The notes under the pieces: model-generated
The model's database searches: none
The model's input: only the letters and a program-made list of their open reading frames with translations
What the model was told of the DNA's origin: nothing
From: a virus
Lineage: Duplodnaviria > Caudoviricetes
Direction: 5' to 3' (one strand)
Virus record (IMG/VR): IMGVR_UViG_3300003320_000620
Location: 24,095-88,094 of that record
Length of the DNA: 64,000 bases
Shown: one piece after another, positions 5,077-25,626 of the stretch
How positions within the stretch are numbered: the stretch's first letter is position 1
Layout: every line of letters begins with the position of its first letter
Program-made: the position numbers and the translations under genes

Positions 5077-5561
5077 TGTAACCTCGTTACTAAACCACGC
5101 TCCCTGTATTCAGTCAGCATGTGATCTGCTAAGTTGTTGGTCCAGTGGTTTTCAGTGCTGGCATGACCTTCTTTGCCCACAACCATTGCTGCGCAGATGG
5201 GGCATATTGGTTTATGCTCTACGTGTGCGTACATCCTCAACAGGTCCTCCGGGCCAACCATTTCCATCAGCGCAACAGTCATTTTGGTGAAGGATTCCAT
5301 AAGCGGATCAGTAAACGCTTCAGGCCCTTCATCTTGAATTTTTTTGGCCATGGCCTCGGCTTCGGCAGGCCCCTTACTGATTAAGTGGCCCATTCCTCTG
5401 TCTGAGATGGCAGCGTGCATCATTTCCCAGTGTTTGCTGCAGCAGGCAAAAGCAACCTGATCGCCGTTCTCAACGTCAACGCCATTGAATGTAGAATGAT
5501 AGTTAATCATAAACCCCTCCTGTTGTGGCGTGGCTTCTGATTTTTGAGTATACGGGTGCAC
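5073..5561 (-). CDS. Hypothetical protein with Cys motifs
   Basis: 162-aa ORF, CC..HW and CPIC motifs; GAGGGG RBS before internal ATG. Confidence 0.6.
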   Translation of the reverse strand: MHPYTQKSEATPQQEGFMINYHSTFNGVDVENGDQVAFACCSKHWEMMHAAISDRGMGHLISKGPAEAEAMAKKIQDEGPEAFTDPLMESFTKMTVALMEMVGPEDLLRMYAHVEHKPICPICAAMVVGKEGHASTENHWTNNLADHMLTEYRERGLVTRLQ

Positions 5562-5614
5562 GCCGCTTTAACCAGTATACCCAACCCCTGCTTTCTTGAA
5601 GCAGCAACGGGGAT

Positions 5615-5644
5615 TTGACAAAAAACTATAAGATGTTGTATCTA
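5615..5644 (+). promoter_or_regulatory. Putative sigma70-type promoter for the RfaH-like gene and late unit
   Basis: TTGACA at 5615-5620; imperfect -10 (GTATCT/TATCTA) 17-18 nt downstream, in the divergent intergenic gap. Confidence 0.45.
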
Positions 5645-5675
5645 CAGCAAGTTCCTTGCTGAACCAAGTGCCCCA

Positions 5676-6158
5676 ATGCCCTGGATCGTAGCCTTAACGA
5701 AGCCAAATCAGGAGCACATAGCCTGCGAAAATCTTTCGCGTCAGGGCTTCCAGTATTATTGGCCTCGTTTCAGTCAAAAAAGACCTAACAAAAAGGATGT
5801 TGTTTGCAGTCTGTTTCCTCGCTATCTTTTTGTTCTTATTTCACAAATTTGGTATCCATTAACAGGGACAAGGGGTATTTCAAAAGTGCTATTAGGAAAT
5901 GATGGACCCCTAATTCTACCGGGGTCAGAACTAGACAATTTGAGAAAGCGTGAAGGGGTGAATGGCCTCATTCAGCTTTCGCCACTCCCTCCTAAATTCC
6001 AGAACGGCGACAAGGTCAAGGCAACAGAAGGTGCTTTGGCTGGCCACCTGTTGATCTATGAGGGGATGACTGCTAAGGACCGTTGTCGTGTCCTAGCCCA
6101 GCTGCTGGGTGGGCACGTTCGCGTAGAACTGGACGAAAAGCTGCTGGTGGCAGCTTAA
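5676..6158 (+). CDS. NusG/RfaH-family transcription antiterminator
   Basis: NGN motifs W.VA.TKPNQE..A..NL.RQGF and LFPRYLFV, TRG; C-terminal KOW F..GD.V...EG.LAG. Confidence 0.9.
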   Translation: MPWIVALTKPNQEHIACENLSRQGFQYYWPRFSQKRPNKKDVVCSLFPRYLFVLISQIWYPLTGTRGISKVLLGNDGPLILPGSELDNLRKREGVNGLIQLSPLPPKFQNGDKVKATEGALAGHLLIYEGMTAKDRCRVLAQLLGGHVRVELDEKLLVAA

Positions 6159-15337: not shown

Positions 15338-16156
15338 ATGCGTGTGTTAGTTACTGGCGGAACTGGAACTATTGGATCAGCCATTGTTAAGCATTTAATT
15401 TCAAAACAACACGAAGTAGTTATTCTAAGCCGTGATGAATATAAGCAGCATAGGCTTAGGCAAGAAATAGGTGATAGTACCAAATTTATACTGGGCGATA
15501 TCAGATCTTACGACACTCTATTAGACGCAATGGCTGGAGTAGATAAGTGCTTTCACGTAGCAGCCATGAAGCATGTTTCCCTTTGTGAAGAAAATCCCTA
15601 TGAAGCGGTCCAAACCAACGTGATTGGAACTAAAAACGTAATAAGGACAGCAAAAGAACGATTGGTGTCAAAGGTGTTGGCAATATCTACAGATAAGGCA
15701 GTCAACCCCATTTCAGTCCTTGGTGGAACCAAGTTTATTATGGAGAAATTGCTTAAGGCTGAAAAAAACGAACCACCATTCGTAACCAAATTTGCATCAA
15801 TCCGCTTTGGTAATATTTTTGATTCGCGTGGATCAGTTTTTGATGTTTGGAAACGCCAAGCGGCATTGGGTGAACCGATAACAATAACTGATTCTAGAGC
15901 TACAAGATATTTCATATCAATAGATAAGGCTGTGTTTGCTGCCTATAAAGCGATGCTTGCTTTTCAGGGTGGGGAAACCTTTATTGTTGATTGTGGTGAT
16001 CCAGTTAACATCTCTGGTTTGGCTCATAAGCTTTATCCTGAAGAAGGAAGGACATTTGTTTATTCTGGGTTAAAAGCAGGCGAGCGTCTTCATGAAGAAT
16101 TATTTTCTTCAAACGAAACACCAGAATTTGGCCCCGAAGGGTTGATGGTAGTCTAA
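15338..16156 (+). CDS. NDP-GlcNAc 4,6-dehydratase (PglF/PseB/CapD-like SDR)
   Basis: TGGTGTIG, SRDE.KQ, HVAAMKHV..CE.NP.EA..TN, STDKAVNP, RFGN..SRGSV, GERLHEEL. Confidence 0.9.
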   Translation: MRVLVTGGTGTIGSAIVKHLISKQHEVVILSRDEYKQHRLRQEIGDSTKFILGDIRSYDTLLDAMAGVDKCFHVAAMKHVSLCEENPYEAVQTNVIGTKNVIRTAKERLVSKVLAISTDKAVNPISVLGGTKFIMEKLLKAEKNEPPFVTKFASIRFGNIFDSRGSVFDVWKRQAALGEPITITDSRATRYFISIDKAVFAAYKAMLAFQGGETFIVDCGDPVNISGLAHKLYPEEGRTFVYSGLKAGERLHEELFSSNETPEFGPEGLMVV

Positions 16157-18884
16157 ATGGCCATTGAACTTGACGAGCTGGCAGGCCCAGACGGTGGTGA
16201 AGAGAGCAGGAAGCTAGCCAAGCACTGGATAGAACAGTTGTCCATGATTAAGGACAATGGCGACAATAAACGTTGGGTTAAACGTGGTGAGGATATTGAA
16301 AAGCGTTATAGGGACGAACGCAGTCGCAGTGACGAGCAAGGTCAGCGCCGCTACAACGCCCTATGGTCCAATGTTCAGATCCTTAAGCCCGCCTTGTTTG
16401 GCAAGGTGCCAATCCCAATTTGTGAGCGGCGTTTCAAAGACAAAGACCCGGTTGGCCGGGGCGCTGCTCAAATGCTTGAGCGTGCTCTAAGGAATGAGAT
16501 AGAAGTTTGTGGCTTTGGGGACTCACTAAGCAGGGCCGTTGATGACTATCTTCTTCCTGGTCGTGGTGTGGTTTGGGTACGCTATGAGCCTGAATTTTCA
16601 GAAAGTATTTCACTTCCTGTTGAGCAGGAAACTGATATTGACGCCAAAATAGGCCAAAGAGCCGTTGGCAAAAATGATGACGATGAAGATCATGATGACG
16701 GTCCTGCATCTGAGGAAGGAAAGCAAGAAGATTACAATGAAGAGGGTGAGGCTCATGAGCCACATGAACAAGCTAATGAAGAAAAGCTTCAAAGTACAGG
16801 CGATAGAATTATCAGGGAATCTACCCCTGTAGATTACATTCCCTGGAAAGACTTCATAACCTTTCCGGCTCAAGCGCGAACATGGCCTGAAGTTACCGCT
16901 ATTGGCAAGCGCGTTTACATGTCGCGCAGCCAAATGAAGAAACGGTTTGGAAAGAGGATCGGCAGTGCTATTCCCTTACAGCGTGACGACCGTGGTCCTA
17001 AAACCCAAAACGCAAGCGTTGTCGTATCATCAGACCAAGACAAAGGTATCATCTACGAAATATGGTCGATTGACCACATGGCGGTTTTTTGGGTGGCTGA
17101 GGGCTATGATTATCTTTGTGATCGCAAAGACGACCCACTAGAATTGGAAAACTTTTGGCCAGTTCCACGACCACTCTTCGCTAATTCCACCAACAACACT
17201 TTGATACCAGTCCCTGACTATATTCAGTATCAGGATCAGGCAATTCAGATTGATGAATTAACGCAACGCATTGCTATGCTGGCAAAGGCTTGTAAGGTTG
17301 CTGGTGTCTATAATGCCGCAGCCAAAGAAATTAAGCGCGTCTTTAACGAATCCTTAGAGAACGAACTCATACCAGTTGACGATTGGGCTGCTTTTGCTCA
17401 AGAGGGTCAAGGTGTGGCTGGAAATATCAGCCTAATGCCCATCAAGGATATTATGGGTGTTCTAAATGAGCTTATTACAGTTAGGAAGTTGGCTATTGAA
17501 GATATGGATCGTCTTACTGGTATCAACGATATTATGCGTGGCACTAGTGACGCGCGTGAAACTTTGGGTGGGGTGCGACTTAAACAAAATTCAACAGGCA
17601 CTAGAATTACTGCACGACAAAATGAAGTAGCTAGGTTTGCTAGAGACATAGTTCGTATTATGGCGGACATCATGTGTCGTCATTTCAGTCCTCAATCGCT
17701 AATTGAGGCCTCAGGTGCCCTTTACGAAGAAGGGCTTGGGCCTGAAGATATGCCTGATTTGACAGAATTGCAGCCGCCAGAACAGCAGCAAATGCCGCCA
17801 CAGGGACAGAAACCGCTTGGTCTTCTGTCATCACAGGCTCAGCCAAATGTTTCCTCAGCCCCAGCCGGTTCCTAATCAGGGGCCAATGCCCCCTCAAATG
17901 CCGCCGTCTGGCCCTCCACAGGGGATGCAGCCGCCAATGGGCGGGCAGCAGCCTCTAAATGGCCAGATTTTGCCACCTCAGCAGCAGATGCCGCCTGAGA
18001 TTATGGCAAAAATGAAGGCCTTTGAGCGGATTGGCAACGCTATAGAACTACTTAGAGATGAAAAACTTCGCGGATTTCGCGTAGATATTGAAGTAGATTC
18101 TACAATTTTCCCAGATGCGGCCCAAGAGAAGGCAGATAGGACAGAATTTATCACTGCTACAACCAAATTTCTTGAGACTGCAATGCAGATGGGCTCAGTA
18201 ATGCCCGAATCTATCCCACTTTTGGGCAAAATGCTGCAATTTGGCGTTAGGGGCTACCGTGTAGGCCGTGATCTTGAGGCTTCAATTGAAGAATTCACTG
18301 ATGAAGCCATAAGAGCAGCCAAAAAGAAGCAAGAAAACGCTGCAACTGCCCAGAATCCGGACATGATTAAGGCTCAGGCCGATGCAAAGAAGGCCGAAAG
18401 CCAATCTCAGGTTGCTCAGATCAAGGCACAGGCCGATATTGAGAAGATTAAGGCTGATCGTGAGAACCAGCAGCAAGAATCGGCTGCTGAAGTTGAACGA
18501 CAACGCCTAGAAAATGAGGGTGAGAAGCAAAACGCCCAAATGGAATATATGTCTAAACAAATTGACATACAAATGAAAATGATGGAGAAGCAACTTCTTG
18601 AAATGAAGATGCAGATGGAAATGTTTAAGGCTCAGCATCAGACCAGACAGGGTCAACAGGAGATTGAGCAGCAAGACCGTGCTATGGCGCATGACGAACA
18701 AATGCAGCAGCAGCAAGCTGTGCAGCAGGAACGTCAATCTCAGCGTGACGCTCAAATGCAGGACCGACAGATGGCTATGCAGGAGCGTGATGCTATGTTC
18801 CAGGAGCGTCAGGCAAACCAAAAGATGCAGCAACAGGCTATGAAGCCCGTCCATTCCCCTAAACCAAACCCCATACAGCAGTAG
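16157..18884 (+). CDS. Portal protein, split into ORFs 16157-17875 and 17817-18884 by an apparent +1 frameshift
   Basis: Position after TerL and before scaffold; Pro/Gln-rich linker continues across the frames near 17845; second ORF carries the FRVDIEVDSTI core and a Q-rich coiled-coil tail. Confidence 0.8.
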
Positions 18885-20776: not shown

Positions 20777-23700
20777 ATGGCTTTTCCTAACCTATCAGAA
20801 ATCGTTACGACTACGCTGCGAAATCGCACAGGCGAGCTCGCAGATAATATGAGCCGTAACAACGCTGCGTTGCTTAGGCTTACTAAACGTGGTAGAAGTT
20901 GTACCTAAGGTTGCCACGTAACCCAGTGAATTCGGTGAAGGCTGAGATGCTAATACCGAGCCAAGATGCAAACGTATAGTGATTACAGTCACTAAAGGGT
21001 TGCATAAGGTGTAGAGACTAGGTAGCCCCGAAAGGGTGTTACCCACGAGCGCTGGGTGTTAGTATGGATGAAGTTCCTGGTATCTATGTTATAGAGTGTG
21101 TGCCAACAGGTAGAGTTTATGTTGGATCTTCAGTAAAGCCACTGGCTAGAATCAAGTCTCACAAAAACTTGCTTAGCAAAGGTACCCATCGTAATGTTCA
21201 TCTCCAAAGGGCTTGGGGTTTGCATGGCTCTAATTCCTTTACTTTCACGGTGGTACAACAGTGTGTTGCTGAAGAGCGCTTCAAAGTAGAACAGGAATGG
21301 ATAACGAAGCTTCAAGCTACTGGTAAAAATGGGTTTAATATAGCGTTCCCTGTTGAACAAGTTCTGCCAAGTGAAAGGATGTCACAGGTAAGCCGTACTT
21401 CCTGGAAGGACAAGAAAACCAGAAAGAATAGGCATGCAGGCATACTTACAAAATGGCAAGACGATGCCTTTAGGGAAAGAAAGCTGCGCGATGGCCTAAA
21501 GGCTAGAGAAGCTTTAGCTAAAAAGCGGTTAGACCCAGAATGGCGTGCTCGGATTAGTGAAAAGACAAGTAAAACTATGAAGGAGCGTGCCAAGACTGAA
21601 GAAGGATTAAAAGCTTTGCGTGTTGCAAGTAAGATTGCTCATATGCGCAGAGAAAATGATCCTGAATTCAAAGCAAAATGTGAAGCAGGCTTGAAGTATT
21701 CGAGTACTAACAAAGAGATAGTCCGACCAGCAGCAAATAAAGAAGCTGCTGAAGTGATGGATAAAGAGCCGTCACGGTAACAACTAAGAACCTAAAGACG
21801 TTCTCAGGTGGGCGTACGATTGTTCAAGAGCTTGTAATGGGCTCATAGTATAGTAAGAGCTTACGGCTTCAGGATACTATGATATGCTGGTGAATTCGGA
21901 GAAAACCCAATGCCCGGCCGAAAGGTGCGGAAGGGCAACCCCGAGCCAAGCAGGCAGTTTTATGCTGCCGGGCGTGTGTAACGATCATGAACCAGCCCCG
22001 GAAGGGAAGATATGATCTGTTCTGCATGGGAACATGCAGAGGCTGACAGAAATGATCAGCCCGGCTGTAAGGACAGTCAGTAACAACTAGAAATTATGCG
22101 AACAATCAAACCTTCCAATGGTATTCAGGATATCAATCCTTGAATATCAGCCCGTCGCAGGTCTTCTCTGCGGCTGAGTACCCGATCCGTCAAGCAGCGG
22201 TGGCTGTCTCTATCTCTGGCCTAGAGGAACTCCAGAACAGTGGAGAGGAAGCCATAATCGACTTGCTGGAGAGTCGGATAATGAATGCGGAAGACACCTT
22301 CGATTTGAGGGCCGCTGCGTAGTTAAAAGGACGCAGATGGAATGCTGGTGAATTCGGTGGAAACCCAATGCCCGGTCTAGAGTTGATGCGGAAGGGTAAT
22401 ACCGAGCCAAGCAAGGAACTTACAAGTTCCTGGGCGTGTGTAACGAGCATGGACCAGCCCCGGAAGGGAAGATGTGCTCTGATCTGCATGGGAACATGCA
22501 GAGGTTGGCAGAAATGACCAACCCCTTAAGTTGAAACTTAAGAGTAACAAATTGTCATGAACGGTCTTTCGCAAGGGGTGTACGGCGACGGTACTGTGGC
22601 CAACTCAGTCGGCGGCCTCCAGTTGCTTGTTTCCAGCTCCCCGACCTCAGGTGTTGTTGGCGGCATTGACCGCTCGCAGTGGTCTTTCTGGCAGAACCAA
22701 TCTTGGTCAGCCAGCACGAACGGCAGCACTACCCTCAGCTCGGCTACCATCATCCAAATGATGGATGCTCTGTGGGTTCAGCTGATCCGCGGCCGTGATT
22801 CGCCTGATCTGATCATCGCAGACAACGTCTGCTACCGCTACTACCTGAATGCCCTCCAGGCCATTCAGCGCGTTACCCAGACTTCTTCGGCTCCTGATAT
22901 GGCTGAGGCTGGCTTCCAGAGCCTCAAGTATATTACGGCCGATGTGGTGCTGGATGGTGGCTTCCAGGGATTCAGCACTGATCCGCTGCCTTCCCAGGTT
23001 TCTACTAGCTCGTCTGCTGTTGGCGGTGCGCCAAGTTCGACGATGTATTTCCTTAACGAGTCGGTGACGATTCACTAACTCATGGGGCTGTTAATCAGTA
23101 AGCGGAGGGTATGATCGTTTCTTGAGAGCTTTACACTTCAAATAAAGCTCTTCTCGATAAGCAAGGATTAAATCTCGGTCCTTGCGGTTGCTACCATCAC
23201 CTCGACCTGGAAAGTTATAGGGGTGTTGGTCAATGTGGTCACGAAGGGCTAGAACTAAATCTACCTCTTCACGTTTTACGATCACATAGGGTTGTATGCG
23301 TCGAAGGAAAGGGGCAACGCCTTGGTTGTGAATGCCCCAACAAAACTGGATACGATTCTTAGGGTTTCGCAAGTCATGTCGGTTTTGGTTCAAATGACCG
23401 CCAAATTCATCATAAAGCATCTTTATGATGGGATAGTGTGTCATGCCAATTCCAACAGCGGGGTAATAGCCCACATGGCCTTTGCGAACCTTTTTGAAGA
23501 TTCGAGCAAAGCCTTCGCCGTCAAACAAGCCAGCAACGTAACGATCATCCAAGACTCAACTCCGTCAGGGGTTAACAGAATGGCAGCGAATTCGGAGAAA
23601 ACCCGATGCCCGGCTCTAAATGAGTGCGGAAGGGCGACCCCGAGCCAAGCAAGCAGAGACAAACTGCTGGGCGTGTGTAACGAACATGTGCTGTCCTCGG

Positions 23701-24461
23701 AAGAGAAGATATGTTCTGAACTCTACAGGAATGTAGAGAAGTTGGCAGAAATGACCAACTCGGCTAATGTACTTATCACTTATAAGTATGTCAAGTCGGT
23801 AACAGATTGCAATACGAAGTACATCCACTGGCGCCCTCATAGCCGCCGCAACATGGTCCCTCTTGATCCAGACCGCTTCTCGGTTAATAGTTGGCCGCAT
23901 GCAAAGGCGACTTTGCATTGAAAATTGGGTGAATTGCTGGAACACCCCACTGGGGCAATCAGCAGCCAAGCTGCTTAGGAATAAGCAGAAGGTTCAACGA
24001 CTAGGTAGAGTAATCCAGACCGGACGAAATACCCACGAGCGCCCAACACCTCTAGTAGGTGAAGATATAGTCTGAACTGTGCAGCAATGTGCAGAAGTGG
24101 CAAATAAAGAGTTGTCACGGTAACAAAAATGCAACCAAGACGCGATGGTAAGATTGATAGGATGGGCTGGGAATATGACCCTGAGCAATGCGTTAACTGA
24201 GAAGCGCCCTCAATATCTAAATTGAGGAAAACTGGGTGAAACGGAGAAAACCCTTATGGGGCAACTCCGTAGGAAGCTGGCAAGGGCATGGTTTGCCAGA
24301 ACCTCTAGAGACTAGGTCCTGAGTCCCAACAATAATGGACCCACGAGCGCCCGGCACCGAAAGGTGATGAAATAGTCCGATCTGTGTAGCAATACGCAGA
24401 AGTGCAGGATAAAGAGCTTGCACGGTAACAGAATGTTCTTCAGGGGATCTTAGTGTCGTAA
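20777..24461 (+). CDS. Major capsid protein, 7 exons, 343 aa after splicing
   Basis: Exons 20777-20893, 21789-21832, 22091-22299, 22555-23053, 23810-23884, 24132-24193, 24436-24461 sum to 1032 nt (344 codons), no internal stop; junctions read KRG|NLKTFSGGRTIVQEL|NYANN, EDTF|MNGLS, MYFL|NTKYIHW, FSV|NQDAM, SNAF|LQGILVS*. Confidence 0.93.
20894..21788 (+). mobile_element. Group I intron 1 (895 nt, has P7.1) with GIY-YIG ORF in L8
   Basis: P1 ACGTGGT/GCCACGT with U.G at the splice site; P3 ACCCAG/CTGGGT; P7 GACTA/TAGTC; P8 GTTAGTA/TACTAAC; P10 AGGTT/AACCT; terminal G. Confidence 0.92.
21064..21780 (+). CDS. Intron-encoded GIY-YIG homing endonuclease
   Basis: GIYVIEC...RVYVGSS, R..SH, HRN.HLQRAW..HG, EQEWI, GFN. 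Confidence 0.9.
   Translation: MDEVPGIYVIECVPTGRVYVGSSVKPLARIKSHKNLLSKGTHRNVHLQRAWGLHGSNSFTFTVVQQCVAEERFKVEQEWITKLQATGKNGFNIAFPVEQVLPSERMSQVSRTSWKDKKTRKNRHAGILTKWQDDAFRERKLRDGLKAREALAKKRLDPEWRARISEKTSKTMKERAKTEEGLKALRVASKIAHMRRENDPEFKAKCEAGLKYSSTNKEIVRPAANKEAAEVMDKEPSR
21833..22090 (+). mobile_element. Group I intron 2 (258 nt, ORF-less, no P7.1)
   Basis: P1 GAGCT/GGCTC; P3 GCTGGT/ACCAGC; P7 GATCAT/ATGATC; terminal G; restores frame. Confidence 0.9.
22300..22554 (+). mobile_element. Group I intron 3 (255 nt, ORF-less, no P7.1)
   Basis: P1 CCT|TC/GAGGG; P7 GAGCAT/GTGCTC (covaries with intron 2); core highly similar to intron 2; terminal G. Confidence 0.9.
23054..23809 (+). mobile_element. 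Group I intron 4 (756 nt) with antisense LAGLIDADG ORF
   Basis: Core GAATTCGGAGAAAACCC...CCGAGCCAAGC...GAAGATATGTTCTG like introns 2/3; stem CTGTTAA/TTAACAG encloses the ORF; exon ends in U, intron ends in G. Confidence 0.88.
23091..23552 (-). CDS. Single-motif LAGLIDADG homing endonuclease, antisense to its intron
   Basis: YVAGLFDGEG motif, GG.L, W.I.N, PFL..IQPY..VKRE; GGAG RBS 7 nt before the TTG start. Confidence 0.88.
   Translation of the reverse strand: MDDRYVAGLFDGEGFARIFKKVRKGHVGYYPAVGIGMTHYPIIKMLYDEFGGHLNQNRHDLRNPKNRIQFCWGIHNQGVAPFLRRIQPYVIVKREEVDLVLALRDHIDQHPYNFPGRGDGSNRKDRDLILAYREELYLKCKALKKRSYPPLTD
23885..24131 (+). mobile_element. Group I intron 5 (247 nt, ORF-less, has P7.1)
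   Basis: Textbook P AATTGCTGGAA, Q AATCAGCAG, R GTTCAACGACTA, S AAGATATAGTCT; P1 CGGT/GCCG; P10 GTTG/CAAC. Confidence 0.95.
24194..24435 (+). mobile_element. Group I intron 6 (242 nt, ORF-less, has P7.1)
   Basis: P1 GCGT/GCGC; P10 AGAA/TTCT; R CTAGAGACTA; S GAAATAGTCC; terminal G. Confidence 0.9.
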
Positions 24462-24477
24462 AGACACCAACAAATGT

Positions 24478-24534
24478 TTTTACTCCGTTAGTGAAGCCTA
24501 TTATGTATTGGGCCTAATCACTAACGGAGTAAAA
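24478..24534 (+). promoter_or_regulatory. 17-bp hairpin occluding the RBS of the downstream endonuclease
   Basis: TTTTACTCCGTTAGTGA (24478-94) / TCACTAACGGAGTAAAA (24518-34); GGAG lies in the stem, ATG at 24541. Confidence 0.8.
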
Positions 24535-24540
24535 CTTACA

Positions 24541-25626
24541 ATGGCTGGATCAGGCATTTATGCCATAGTTTGCATACCAACAAACCAGCGCTATGTTGGA
24601 TATGCTGTAAATTGGGAGAAACGAACGAAAAGTCACTTTTCAAAACTTGAGCGCGGTGTTCATAAAAACAAGAAACTTCAAGATGCTTGGTTTTTACATG
24701 GTGAAAATAATTTCAAGTTTGAGTTGTTGGAATTGTGCCCAATAAAGGATTTGGTGCATAGAGAGTATTGGTGGATTAAACATTTCAACTCCGTTGAAAA
24801 TGGTTTCAATAACTTACGATCTGGTTGCTTTTCTAATACTTCGCATGGAATGTCTGGCACGCCAACATTCAAATCTTGGGAATCAATGCTTCAGCGCTGC
24901 AATAATCCAAACTCACCAGATTATCCAAAATGGGGTGGTTGTGGTATTAAGGTTCATGAAAGCTGGTTTGAGTTTTCTAAATTTTATGCTGATATGGGTG
25001 AGAGACCGCCAGGAACCTCAATAGATAGGCATCCAAACAAGTTTGGAAATTATGAACCTGGGAATTGCCGTTGGGCAACTGGCTCAGAACAACAGAAAAA
25101 CAAAAGCAACACATTGTTTATAACGCATAATGGAATATGCAAACCCCTTGTTGAATGGGCTGACGAAAAGGGAATGCCTCGAGACCTTTTACGTAGGCGT
25201 TATCATGCAGGAATGCTTGGTGATGAACTTTTCGCTCCATCCTACAGCCGTTATAAAGGTGACGTTAACGGCGTTAAGAGAAAGAGGGTTGAGACTAGGC
25301 ATAACTTGCATAAATTTGAATATAAAGGAAAAATGCGTTCAATTACAGAAATAGCGGAGCTAGCAGGGATTAAGCGCTCGAGGTTGAAACAACGCTTGGT
25401 TAGAGACAAAATGAGCCTCGAGGTAGCGTTAAGTGAAAATGCTTTGCCTAGGGGGAAAGCCGGGCCTAGAAATGGTAGGGTTATGTTAACTGCCTTTGGC
25501 AAGACACAATCAATAAGTCGATGGGCTGAACAATACCACATGGCACTTTCAACCTTAAGGAATAGAATTTTTAGATCTGGCATGAAACTAGAGGATGCCT
25601 TAACACTGAACAAGTCCACATCGTGA
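24541..25626 (+). CDS. Free-standing homing endonuclease with GIY-YIG plus HNH-type domains and repeated helical DNA-binding modules
   Basis: GIYAIV...YVG...EYWWI...GFN; then W.SM.QRC.NP...GIKV...F.ADMGERP..SIDR...NY.PGNCRWAT; three x-G-x-x-x-(L/I)-x-(E/R)-(W/I)-A repeats. Confidence 0.85.
   Translation: MAGSGIYAIVCIPTNQRYVGYAVNWEKRTKSHFSKLERGVHKNKKLQDAWFLHGENNFKFELLELCPIKDLVHREYWWIKHFNSVENGFNNLRSGCFSNTSHGMSGTPTFKSWESMLQRCNNPNSPDYPKWGGCGIKVHESWFEFSKFYADMGERPPGTSIDRHPNKFGNYEPGNCRWATGSEQQKNKSNTLFITHNGICKPLVEWADEKGMPRDLLRRRYHAGMLGDELFAPSYSRYKGDVNGVKRKRVETRHNLHKFEYKGKMRSITEIAELAGIKRSRLKQRLVRDKMSLEVALSENALPRGKAGPRNGRVMLTAFGKTQSISRWAEQYHMALSTLRNRIFRSGMKLEDALTLNKSTS

Follow-up and report, generated by a model that had tools for sequence, protein, structure and literature searches.

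Organization of the interrupted capsid gene

The locus described here occupies positions 20777 to 24461 (+ strand) of a 64,000-nucleotide stretch of viral DNA (the window), which corresponds to bases 24095 to 88094 of the 88,094-bp IMG/VR virus record IMGVR_UViG_3300003320_000620. The record comes from an uncultured tailed phage of soil or root with a genome of about 88 kb. Seven exons of a major capsid gene and six inserts, read here as group I introns, were recognized at this locus (Table 1). The introns make up 2653 of the 3685 nt, and the joined exons form a 1032-nt frame that encodes 343 amino acids (aa) with 0 internal stops. This architecture had been proposed in an earlier reading of the same DNA made from its letters alone (the sequence-only reading), and the coordinates and lengths given there for the six removed segments and seven exons proved exact. 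Its remark that the open reading frame (ORF) track contains only fragments of the capsid gene was confirmed in the ORF list, which between 20.7 and 24.5 kb holds capsid fragments and two endonuclease ORFs only.

Table 1 Features of the interrupted capsid gene and of the gene that follows it (window positions; CDS, coding sequence)
Feature	Position	Strand	Description
Capsid exon 1	20777-20893	+	117 nt, aa 1-39; AGGAG 8 nt upstream of ATG; PHROG 9953 match
Intron 1	20894-21788	+	895 nt, lineage A, CDS site 117
GIY-YIG homing endonuclease ORF in intron 1	21064-21780	+	238 aa; Pfam PF01541, PHROG 314
Capsid exon 2	21789-21832	+	44 nt; homologue alignment
Intron 2	21833-22090	+	258 nt, lineage B, CDS site 161
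Capsid exon 3	22091-22299	+	209 nt; homologue alignment
Intron 3	22300-22554	+	255 nt, lineage B, CDS site 370
Capsid exon 4	22555-23053	+	499 nt; PHROG 9953 match; variable middle of protein
Intron 4	23054-23809	+	756 nt, lineage B, CDS site 869
LAGLIDADG-like ORF in intron 4	23091-23552	-	153 aa; PHROG 5046, motif AGLFDGEG
Capsid exon 5	23810-23884	+	75 nt; homologue alignment
Intron 5	23885-24131	+	247 nt, lineage A, CDS site 944
Capsid exon 6	24132-24193	+	62 nt; homologue alignment
Intron 6	24194-24435	+	242 nt, lineage A, CDS site 1006
Capsid exon 7	24436-24461	+	26 nt including TAA stop; homologue alignment
Free-standing GIY-YIG endonuclease gene	24508-25626	+	372 aa; Pfam PF01541, PHROG 3377 and 374

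Each exon that precedes an intron ends in T, and all six introns end in G. An in-frame stop was found 15 to 37 nt inside every intron, and unspliced RNA would therefore yield truncated peptides only; as a purely descriptive comparison, the median distance to these early stops was 22.5 nt in frame and 35 nt in the other two frames. Related capsid loci were collected by a scan of IMG/VR (53 loci), and spliced nucleotide alignment against the intronless allele of one of these relatives (L007, 4629-5660) returned the same boundaries. The sole ambiguous boundary was that of intron 4, where a repeated TAAC permits a 4-nt shift that leaves the protein unchanged; it was settled in favor of the boundary in the sequence-only reading by the rule that exons end in U and introns in G and by an intron at the same site in relative L014. 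Seven pieces cannot give a collinear 343-aa frame by chance. Exon 5 lies between two phase-2 junctions, so its skipping would stay in frame and remove 25 aa.

Capsid identity and selection on the spliced frame

Assignment of the interrupted gene as the major capsid gene, as the sequence-only reading had it, is supported by several sequence comparisons. Exons 1 and 4 matched PHROG 9953 ("major head protein"; E 2.3e-8 over profile positions 4-42 and E 1.2e-40 over positions 129-276, respectively), homologues carry the annotation capsid protein, a profile of intronless relatives matched the PDB chain 6j3q_A ("major capsid protein", E 1.5e-5), and terminase and portal genes lie upstream. Pfam holds no family for this capsid protein, the only trace being a sub-threshold match to SU10_MCP in a distant relative. 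Single-sequence PDB searches with the capsid protein and with the ORF of intron 4 returned nothing useful, and an AlphaFold2 (AF2) model of the intronless L007 protein, built from a 17-row alignment, was unusable (predicted local distance difference test, pLDDT, 33).

In full-length alignments, the spliced protein matched its intronless capsid counterparts in Bradyrhizobium phage ppBjS10J-1, Myxococcus phage Mx8, and Stenotrophomonas phage BUCT555, and conserved residues spanned all junctions without a break. More than 30 IMG/VR relatives also contain residues 1-343 in a single frame without interruption (84-89% identity). The collinearity with intronless homologues on which the sequence-only reading depended was present both in the three named phages and in the IMG/VR relatives.

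Compared with intronless L007, the exons were 75% identical in nucleotides and 89% identical in protein. The proportions of nonsynonymous and synonymous differences (pN and pS) were 0.105 and 0.735, which gives a ratio of nonsynonymous to synonymous rates (dN/dS) of ~0.04 with synonymous sites saturated. The N- and C-terminal regions that are encoded by the small exons (dN ~0.055) were constrained to the same degree as the rest of the gene. The capsid gene is under strong purifying selection, and a tblastn search of the whole genome found no second capsid gene. Given that this is the sole capsid gene, that it is under selection, and that it is collinear with uninterrupted homologues, the gene is presumably in use, and the six inserts would have to be removed.

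Group I structure of the introns

In the covariance-model check named in the sequence-only reading, the Rfam model RF00028 (Intron_gpI) matched all six inserts on the + strand and within the predicted boundaries, though intron 5 alone (96.2 bits) exceeded the gathering score of 50 bits. The remaining scores were 48.5 bits for intron 6, 32.1 for intron 2, 20.2 for intron 4, 19.8 for intron 1 (a partial match), and 19.4 for intron 3. In the loci of six relatives, the same model produced 21 matches, of which 11, from sister introns of both lineages described below, exceeded the cut-off at 51-73 bits.

By similarity, the introns were divided into two lineages, A (introns 1, 5, and 6) and B (introns 2, 3, and 4, which are 77-84% alike). 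Two alignments that include introns from other phages were prepared, one for lineage B (A1; 9 introns from 8 different sites) and one for lineage A (A2; 17 introns). Both lineages follow the helix order P3, P4, P5, P6, P7, P3', P8, P7', P9 with the P3/P7 pseudoknot, and the lineage B fold comprises P2, P3, P4, P5, P6, P8, P9, and P9.1 plus P7 as the pseudoknot strand. In A1, 95.8% of cells were paired (30-38% when partners were slid) and 37 of 59 pairs showed compensatory changes; the corresponding values for A2 were 95.2% (34-40% when slid) and 42 of 54 pairs. In neither alignment did any of 500 shuffles reach the observed level.

P7 is the helix that binds guanosine. Its pseudoknot strand covaries in lineage B, where introns 3, 2, and 4 carry G-C, U-A, and A-U at the same pair (intron 2 GATCA/TGATC, intron 3 GAGCA/TGCTC, intron 4 GAACA/TGTTC), and in lineage A it changes from GACUA/UAGUC to GCACA/UGUGC. 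One further covarying hairpin was found between P7 and P3' in lineage A (A2 columns 181-185 with 206-210) and none in lineage B. Introns of subgroup IA bear extra hairpins, P7.1/P7.2, in this interval.

Once the ORFs are taken out, 46 of the 54 lineage A pairs form in intron 1 and 55 of the 59 lineage B pairs form in intron 4. Intron 1 matched the nhmmer profile of lineage A (E 1.6e-15), and introns 4 and 3 matched that of lineage B at 161 and 240 bits, the latter score being expected by construction because intron 3 is itself part of the alignment (A1) behind that profile. The sequence-only reading had named P/Q/R/S cores; cores from P3 to P9 with the P3/P7 pseudoknot were recovered with covariation in both lineages, and the assignment of all six inserts as canonical group I introns is supported by these comparisons.

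Two other classes of insert were considered. Inteins were excluded because the inserts carry in-frame stops and match an RNA model, and no sequence feature points to group II introns or to translational bypass.

Splice-site pairings

Guide sequences were located in all six introns, and in each the U at the exon end faces a guide G as a U.G pair in P1, exactly as the sequence-only reading had described. That reading had also reported visible P10 pairings. P10 is convincing in introns 1, 5, and 6 (4-5 bp) but weak in introns 2-4 (1-3 bp). In lineage A, the guide of intron 1 (AGGTT-G-CCACGT, 20908-20919) forms a P1 of 7 bp and a P10 of 5 bp, a combined score that no decoy flank attained. The guides of intron 5 (GTTG-G-CCG, 23890-23897) and intron 6 (GAGAA-G-CGC, 24199-24207) each form a P1 of 4 bp, followed by a P10 of 4 and 5 bp, respectively. 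In lineage B, GGCTC of intron 2 (21840-21844) pairs with exon GAGCT over 5 bp, and GGG of intron 3 (22309-22311) and of intron 4 (23085-23087) pairs with exon CCT over 3 bp. Averaged over 51 introns, P1 plus P10 amounted to 7.2 bp with an intron's own flanks vs 4.6 bp with decoy flanks.

In all 9 aligned lineage B introns, as well as in intron 4, the triplet directly 5' of P2 pairs with the three terminal bases of the exon. Exon and guide triplets vary together with the site (GCU/GGC, CCU/GGG, and CAU/GUG), and this dependence of the guide on its site constitutes direct comparative evidence for P1.

Endonuclease genes

In intron 1, P8 (TGTTAGTA / TACTAACA) encloses the endonuclease ORF, which starts in the P8 stem, runs through P8', P7', and P9, and stops 8 nt before the 3' splice site. 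Its product matched Pfam PF01541 at 39.4 bits (cut-off 22.6) as well as PHROG 314 (homing endonuclease), and in L027, L026, and L020 its relatives are found within introns at different sites of the capsid gene.

In intron 4, P2 (CTGTTAA / TTAACAG) encloses the antisense ORF in its loop. This ORF had no Pfam match of its own; it matched PHROG 5046 (E 1.5e-19) and had an Atlas feature score of 0.95 to clusters bearing LAGLIDADG_1. Its homologue in L021 reached 19.3 bits (E 0.002) against Pfam LAGLIDADG_1 (PF00961), under the cut-off of 23.1. The AF2 model of the window protein was unusable (pLDDT 38). From these matches, the product is classed as a putative LAGLIDADG-like endonuclease. The L021 homologue (5559-5984, in an intron at site 866) is 32% identical and lies on the sense strand, whereas the window copy is antisense. 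The loops that hold the intron ORFs are peripheral ones.

The free-standing endonuclease gene, directly after the capsid stop, matched PF01541 at 41 bits (cut-off 22.6), and its N-terminal GIY-YIG domain is accompanied by a second region that matches the HNH endonuclease-labelled PHROG 3377 and 374. This gene is optional among the 53 relatives, being full length in L028 only, present as fragments in ~13 other loci, and absent from others (e.g., L058). Endonuclease activity of the encoded proteins is predicted.

Distribution of introns among related phages

The introns are polymorphic for presence and absence. Interrupted capsid genes were found in 13 of the 53 relatives, with 1-9 introns each at ~28 sites. 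Nine introns were counted in L014, at least nine in L025, six in L018, five or six in L027, five in L021, and four each in L020 and L028 (counts for L021, L023, and L041 are approximate). Nearly every one of the ~50 introns in relatives was placed uniquely by the U...G rule, and in silico splicing of the relatives' genes gave stop-free 343-aa proteins.

Four of the six window sites (117, 370/869, 944, and 1006) are also occupied in relatives. Site 117 holds an ORF-less homologue of intron 1 in L028, site 370 holds a homologue of intron 3 in L026, site 869 is occupied in L014, and site 1006 is occupied in L014, L020, L021, and L028. Lineage B by itself was found at no fewer than nine sites, and the alleles of L014, L018, and L020, which are 87-90% identical, hold different sets of introns. 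No intron site lies between CDS nucleotides 382 and 865 in any relative (P<0.0002), a stretch within exon 4, and the occupied sites are in slightly more conserved DNA (P 0.024). Searches with the lineage profiles over the whole 88 kb returned no match outside the capsid gene, and RF00028 searches of five whole related records (63-95 kb) returned none outside the capsid region.

A 51-nt insert was observed at capsid site 78 of L025 (3571-3621). It is preceded by U, starts with an in-frame TAA, and ends in G; P1 (exon ACATGTCT with GGACATGT) and a 3-bp P10 are kept, there is no catalytic core, and a full intron lies 39 nt downstream. By its sequence, this insert seems to be an intron derivative that has lost its core and would depend on a trans-acting ribozyme.

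Genome context

CheckV estimated the 88,094-bp record to be 97% complete, and its DNA occurs in a root metagenome. The capsid gene is preceded, in order, by genes for the large terminase, a sugar-nucleotide enzyme, the portal, and a 402-aa protein. The gene between terminase and portal (window 15338-16156) is nucleotide-sugar epimerase/dehydratase-like (PHROG 540). The portal gene (window 16157-18884) is present in two overlapping frames, 16157-17875 and 17817-18884, which match PHROG 12082 over profile positions 10-473 and 502-714. These parts are in one frame in L007, L011, L016, and L028, and the shift in the window falls within a Q/P-rich linker. Either a real frameshift or, given the ~4x depth of the contig, a sequencing error could account for it.

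A megablast search of the capsid locus against GenBank phages gave 0 matches. Relatives in genome collections sit in metagenome-assembled genomes (MAGs) of many phyla, and these are probably mis-binned phage contigs, for which reason the host cannot be named. One such contig, L060 (DASTCT010000326.1, 92,176 bp, filed as a Candidatus Angelobacter MAG), was 93% identical to the profile of intronless relatives (A3) over residues 59-343 only. It looks like a phage genome that was binned into a bacterial MAG, and the N-terminal part of its capsid gene is, from this truncated match, probably interrupted too.

Proposed mechanism and alternative explanations

We consider it about 90% probable that positions 20777-24461 hold a single major capsid gene of an ~88-kb tailed phage, interrupted by six introns that are all canonical group I and belong to two related lineages. 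Under this reading, the gene would be transcribed late into one precursor, in which each intron would fold into a P3-P9 core and dock its own 5' exon end on its internal guide sequence to form P1, with the U.G wobble at the cut. Two guanosine-dependent transesterifications would then remove each intron, leaving seven exons joined in a 1032-nt mRNA for the 343-aa capsid protein. Splicing, its efficiency, and its autonomy (self-splicing) are what we infer from the DNA. The introns would also be mobile. Homing endonuclease genes lie in two of them, and one more endonuclease gene lies just downstream; the introns may spread between co-infecting relatives through endonuclease-triggered repair, and one lineage may have colonized many sites of this gene by gaining new guide triplets.

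Several observations weigh against this reading. None of the runs listed as containing the stretch is an RNA run, and the matching contigs came from the DNA of one root-metagenome study only. Exact-pattern scans of Joint Genome Institute (JGI) metagenome contigs for the spliced form (the exon 5/6 and 6/7 junctions together, and the exon 3/4 junction) found 0. DNA depth is only ~4x, five of the six introns fall under the Rfam gathering score, and the out-of-frame portal gene may indicate a partly defective genome or assembly errors. Introns 3 and 4, with a 3-bp exon P1 and weak P10, may need a protein cofactor or splice poorly, and the guide triplet GGG that they share makes cross-reaction or exon skipping conceivable.

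The low depth, together with the 77-84% likeness of introns 2-4, which could confuse an assembler, might suggest that intron-like repeats of several genomes were stitched into one contig. Independent Logan contigs from the root-metagenome run are 100% identical to the locus and bridge several exon-intron borders. At least 31 bases on both sides are covered at exon 1/intron 1, exon 3/intron 3, intron 4/exon 5, exon 5/intron 5, intron 5/exon 6, and exon 6/intron 6, and one 912-nt piece extends from intron 4 into intron 6 across exons 5 and 6 and the intron between them. At intron 2/exon 3 and exon 4/intron 4 the contigs reach ~20-30 bases on the exon side, and no listed record bridges the remaining borders. 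An assembly chimera is highly improbable because of this bridging and because four of the six sites recur in independent relatives that come from other samples; in addition, the introns are too divergent to collapse. It is also very unlikely, if slightly less so, that the locus is a decaying pseudogene of a defective phage, with inserts that are mobile elements that killed the gene and that stay in the RNA. The split portal gene, a single ORF in relatives, would fit such a phage, as would the low coverage and the negative search for RNA runs. The seven exons, however, are all intact and in register, the dN/dS ratio is that of a constrained gene, the interrupted gene is the only capsid gene of the genome, and the introns retain compensatory base pairing. 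The same architecture with stop-free spliced frames recurs in twelve other independently sampled phages.

A less distant alternative, which we regard as possible but doubtful, is that some of the group I-derived inserts, notably introns 3 and 4, have lost self-splicing and need a phage or host protein or a neighboring ribozyme, so that capsid production would be factor-dependent. The 3-bp P1 and weak P10 of these introns and their low RF00028 scores (19-20 bits) are compatible with this, as is the core-less 51-nt derivative in L025, and four published Bastillevirinae introns were spliced in infected cells only (PMC11878797). The core helices of introns 3 and 4 are nevertheless complete and covarying. 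Further, the short P1 is a lineage trait rather than decay, because it is common to every lineage B member at nine sites. Removal of six canonical group I introns from one functional capsid transcript remains the reading that we prefer.

Comparison with known systems and significance

The sequence-only reading had noted that phage introns usually number one to three per gene and sit mostly in DNA-metabolism genes, which agrees with the published maximum of three introns per gene in cultured phages (PMC11878797). Its novelty claim was overstated, as capsid genes with multiple group I introns have been published both for crAss-like phages of the Zeta group (PMC7886860) and for Faustovirus (PMC6247863). 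In a Zeta-group genome (cMAG OLRF01000054; Yutin et al. 2021), the capsid gene is in five fragments with four inserts, and Zeta genomes are intron-rich throughout, with up to 14 introns and 3 inteins (PMC7886860). As here, this is a tailed-phage major capsid gene in several pieces that is metagenomic and known from DNA. It differs in having five fragments rather than seven exons (and up to nine introns in relatives of the window phage), in its other capsid family, in its origin from the gut rather than from root or soil, and in a genome-wide spread of introns, whereas lineage profiles and RF00028 searches placed those described here in the capsid gene only. The major capsid gene of Faustovirus E12 contains 12 introns over 17 kb, seven of which are not group I, with splicing demonstrated by RNA-seq (PMC6247863). 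It is likewise an intron hot spot with very short exons, in which five introns are of group I and two of these five contain GIY-YIG ORFs; in contrast to the phage gene, it belongs to a giant virus of amoebae, encodes a double-jelly-roll capsid protein, and has had its splicing shown (PMC6247863).

Among cultured phages, several self-splicing group I introns per gene have been described in orf142 of Staphylococcus phage Twort (Landthaler & Shub 1999, as cited) and in polymerase and terminase genes of Bastillevirinae (PMC11878797). The likeness lies in multiple group I introns within one phage gene; the differences are that there are at most three per gene, that splicing was proven experimentally, and that the Bastillevirinae targets are DNA-metabolism and terminase genes (PMC11878797). 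Exon skipping between neighboring phage introns has been documented (PMC11878797). Single capsid introns are known in mycobacteriophage LittleE and in Tuc2009 (PMC3706429). The LittleE intron also follows an exon-terminal U, ends in G, and contains an opposite-strand LAGLIDADG-like ORF, as in intron 4, but it is a single intron, and its splicing was shown by reverse transcription PCR (PMC3706429). In the Jug jumbo phages (genomes of 360-402 kb, 18.5 introns per genome on average, terL in 2-3 pieces), small group I introns and endonucleases have colonized essential genes in comparable mass, spread over many genes instead of concentrated in one (PMC12880540). An intron endonuclease of PhiPA3 acts as a weapon between co-infecting phages (PMC11620839).

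Six introns in a 1032-nt CDS, with exons down to 26-75 nt, exceed the figures reported for a single phage gene in the literature searched (three introns in cultured phages, four inserts in crAss-like phages), and relatives reach nine. This is an extreme case of a known habit, with canonical group I introns and homing endonucleases and no new mechanism. A more speculative possibility, to which we give limited credence, is that the capsid gene is a dedicated battleground in which two lineages repeatedly re-target new conserved sites (at least 28), their guide triplets varying from site to site, and introns and endonucleases serve as weapons or immunity markers between co-infecting relatives. Selection would then favor the intron load instead of only tolerating it, six to nine ordered splicing events would be needed for capsid supply, and core-less mini-derivatives such as the 51-nt element in L025 would be removed in trans by a neighboring ribozyme.

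For annotation, the consequence is that standard gene callers report capsid fragments only in such genomes. The clade constitutes a natural test system, with intronless alleles and alleles of 1-9 introns, ~28 sites, two ribozyme lineages whose guides track the site, and a rest of the genome that is apparently intron-free. It permits tests of the ways in which group I introns reach new sites, of whether intron and endonuclease load has an effect in phage-phage competition, and of the manner in which many successive ribozymes achieve accurate folding and splicing in the late transcript that is expressed most heavily.

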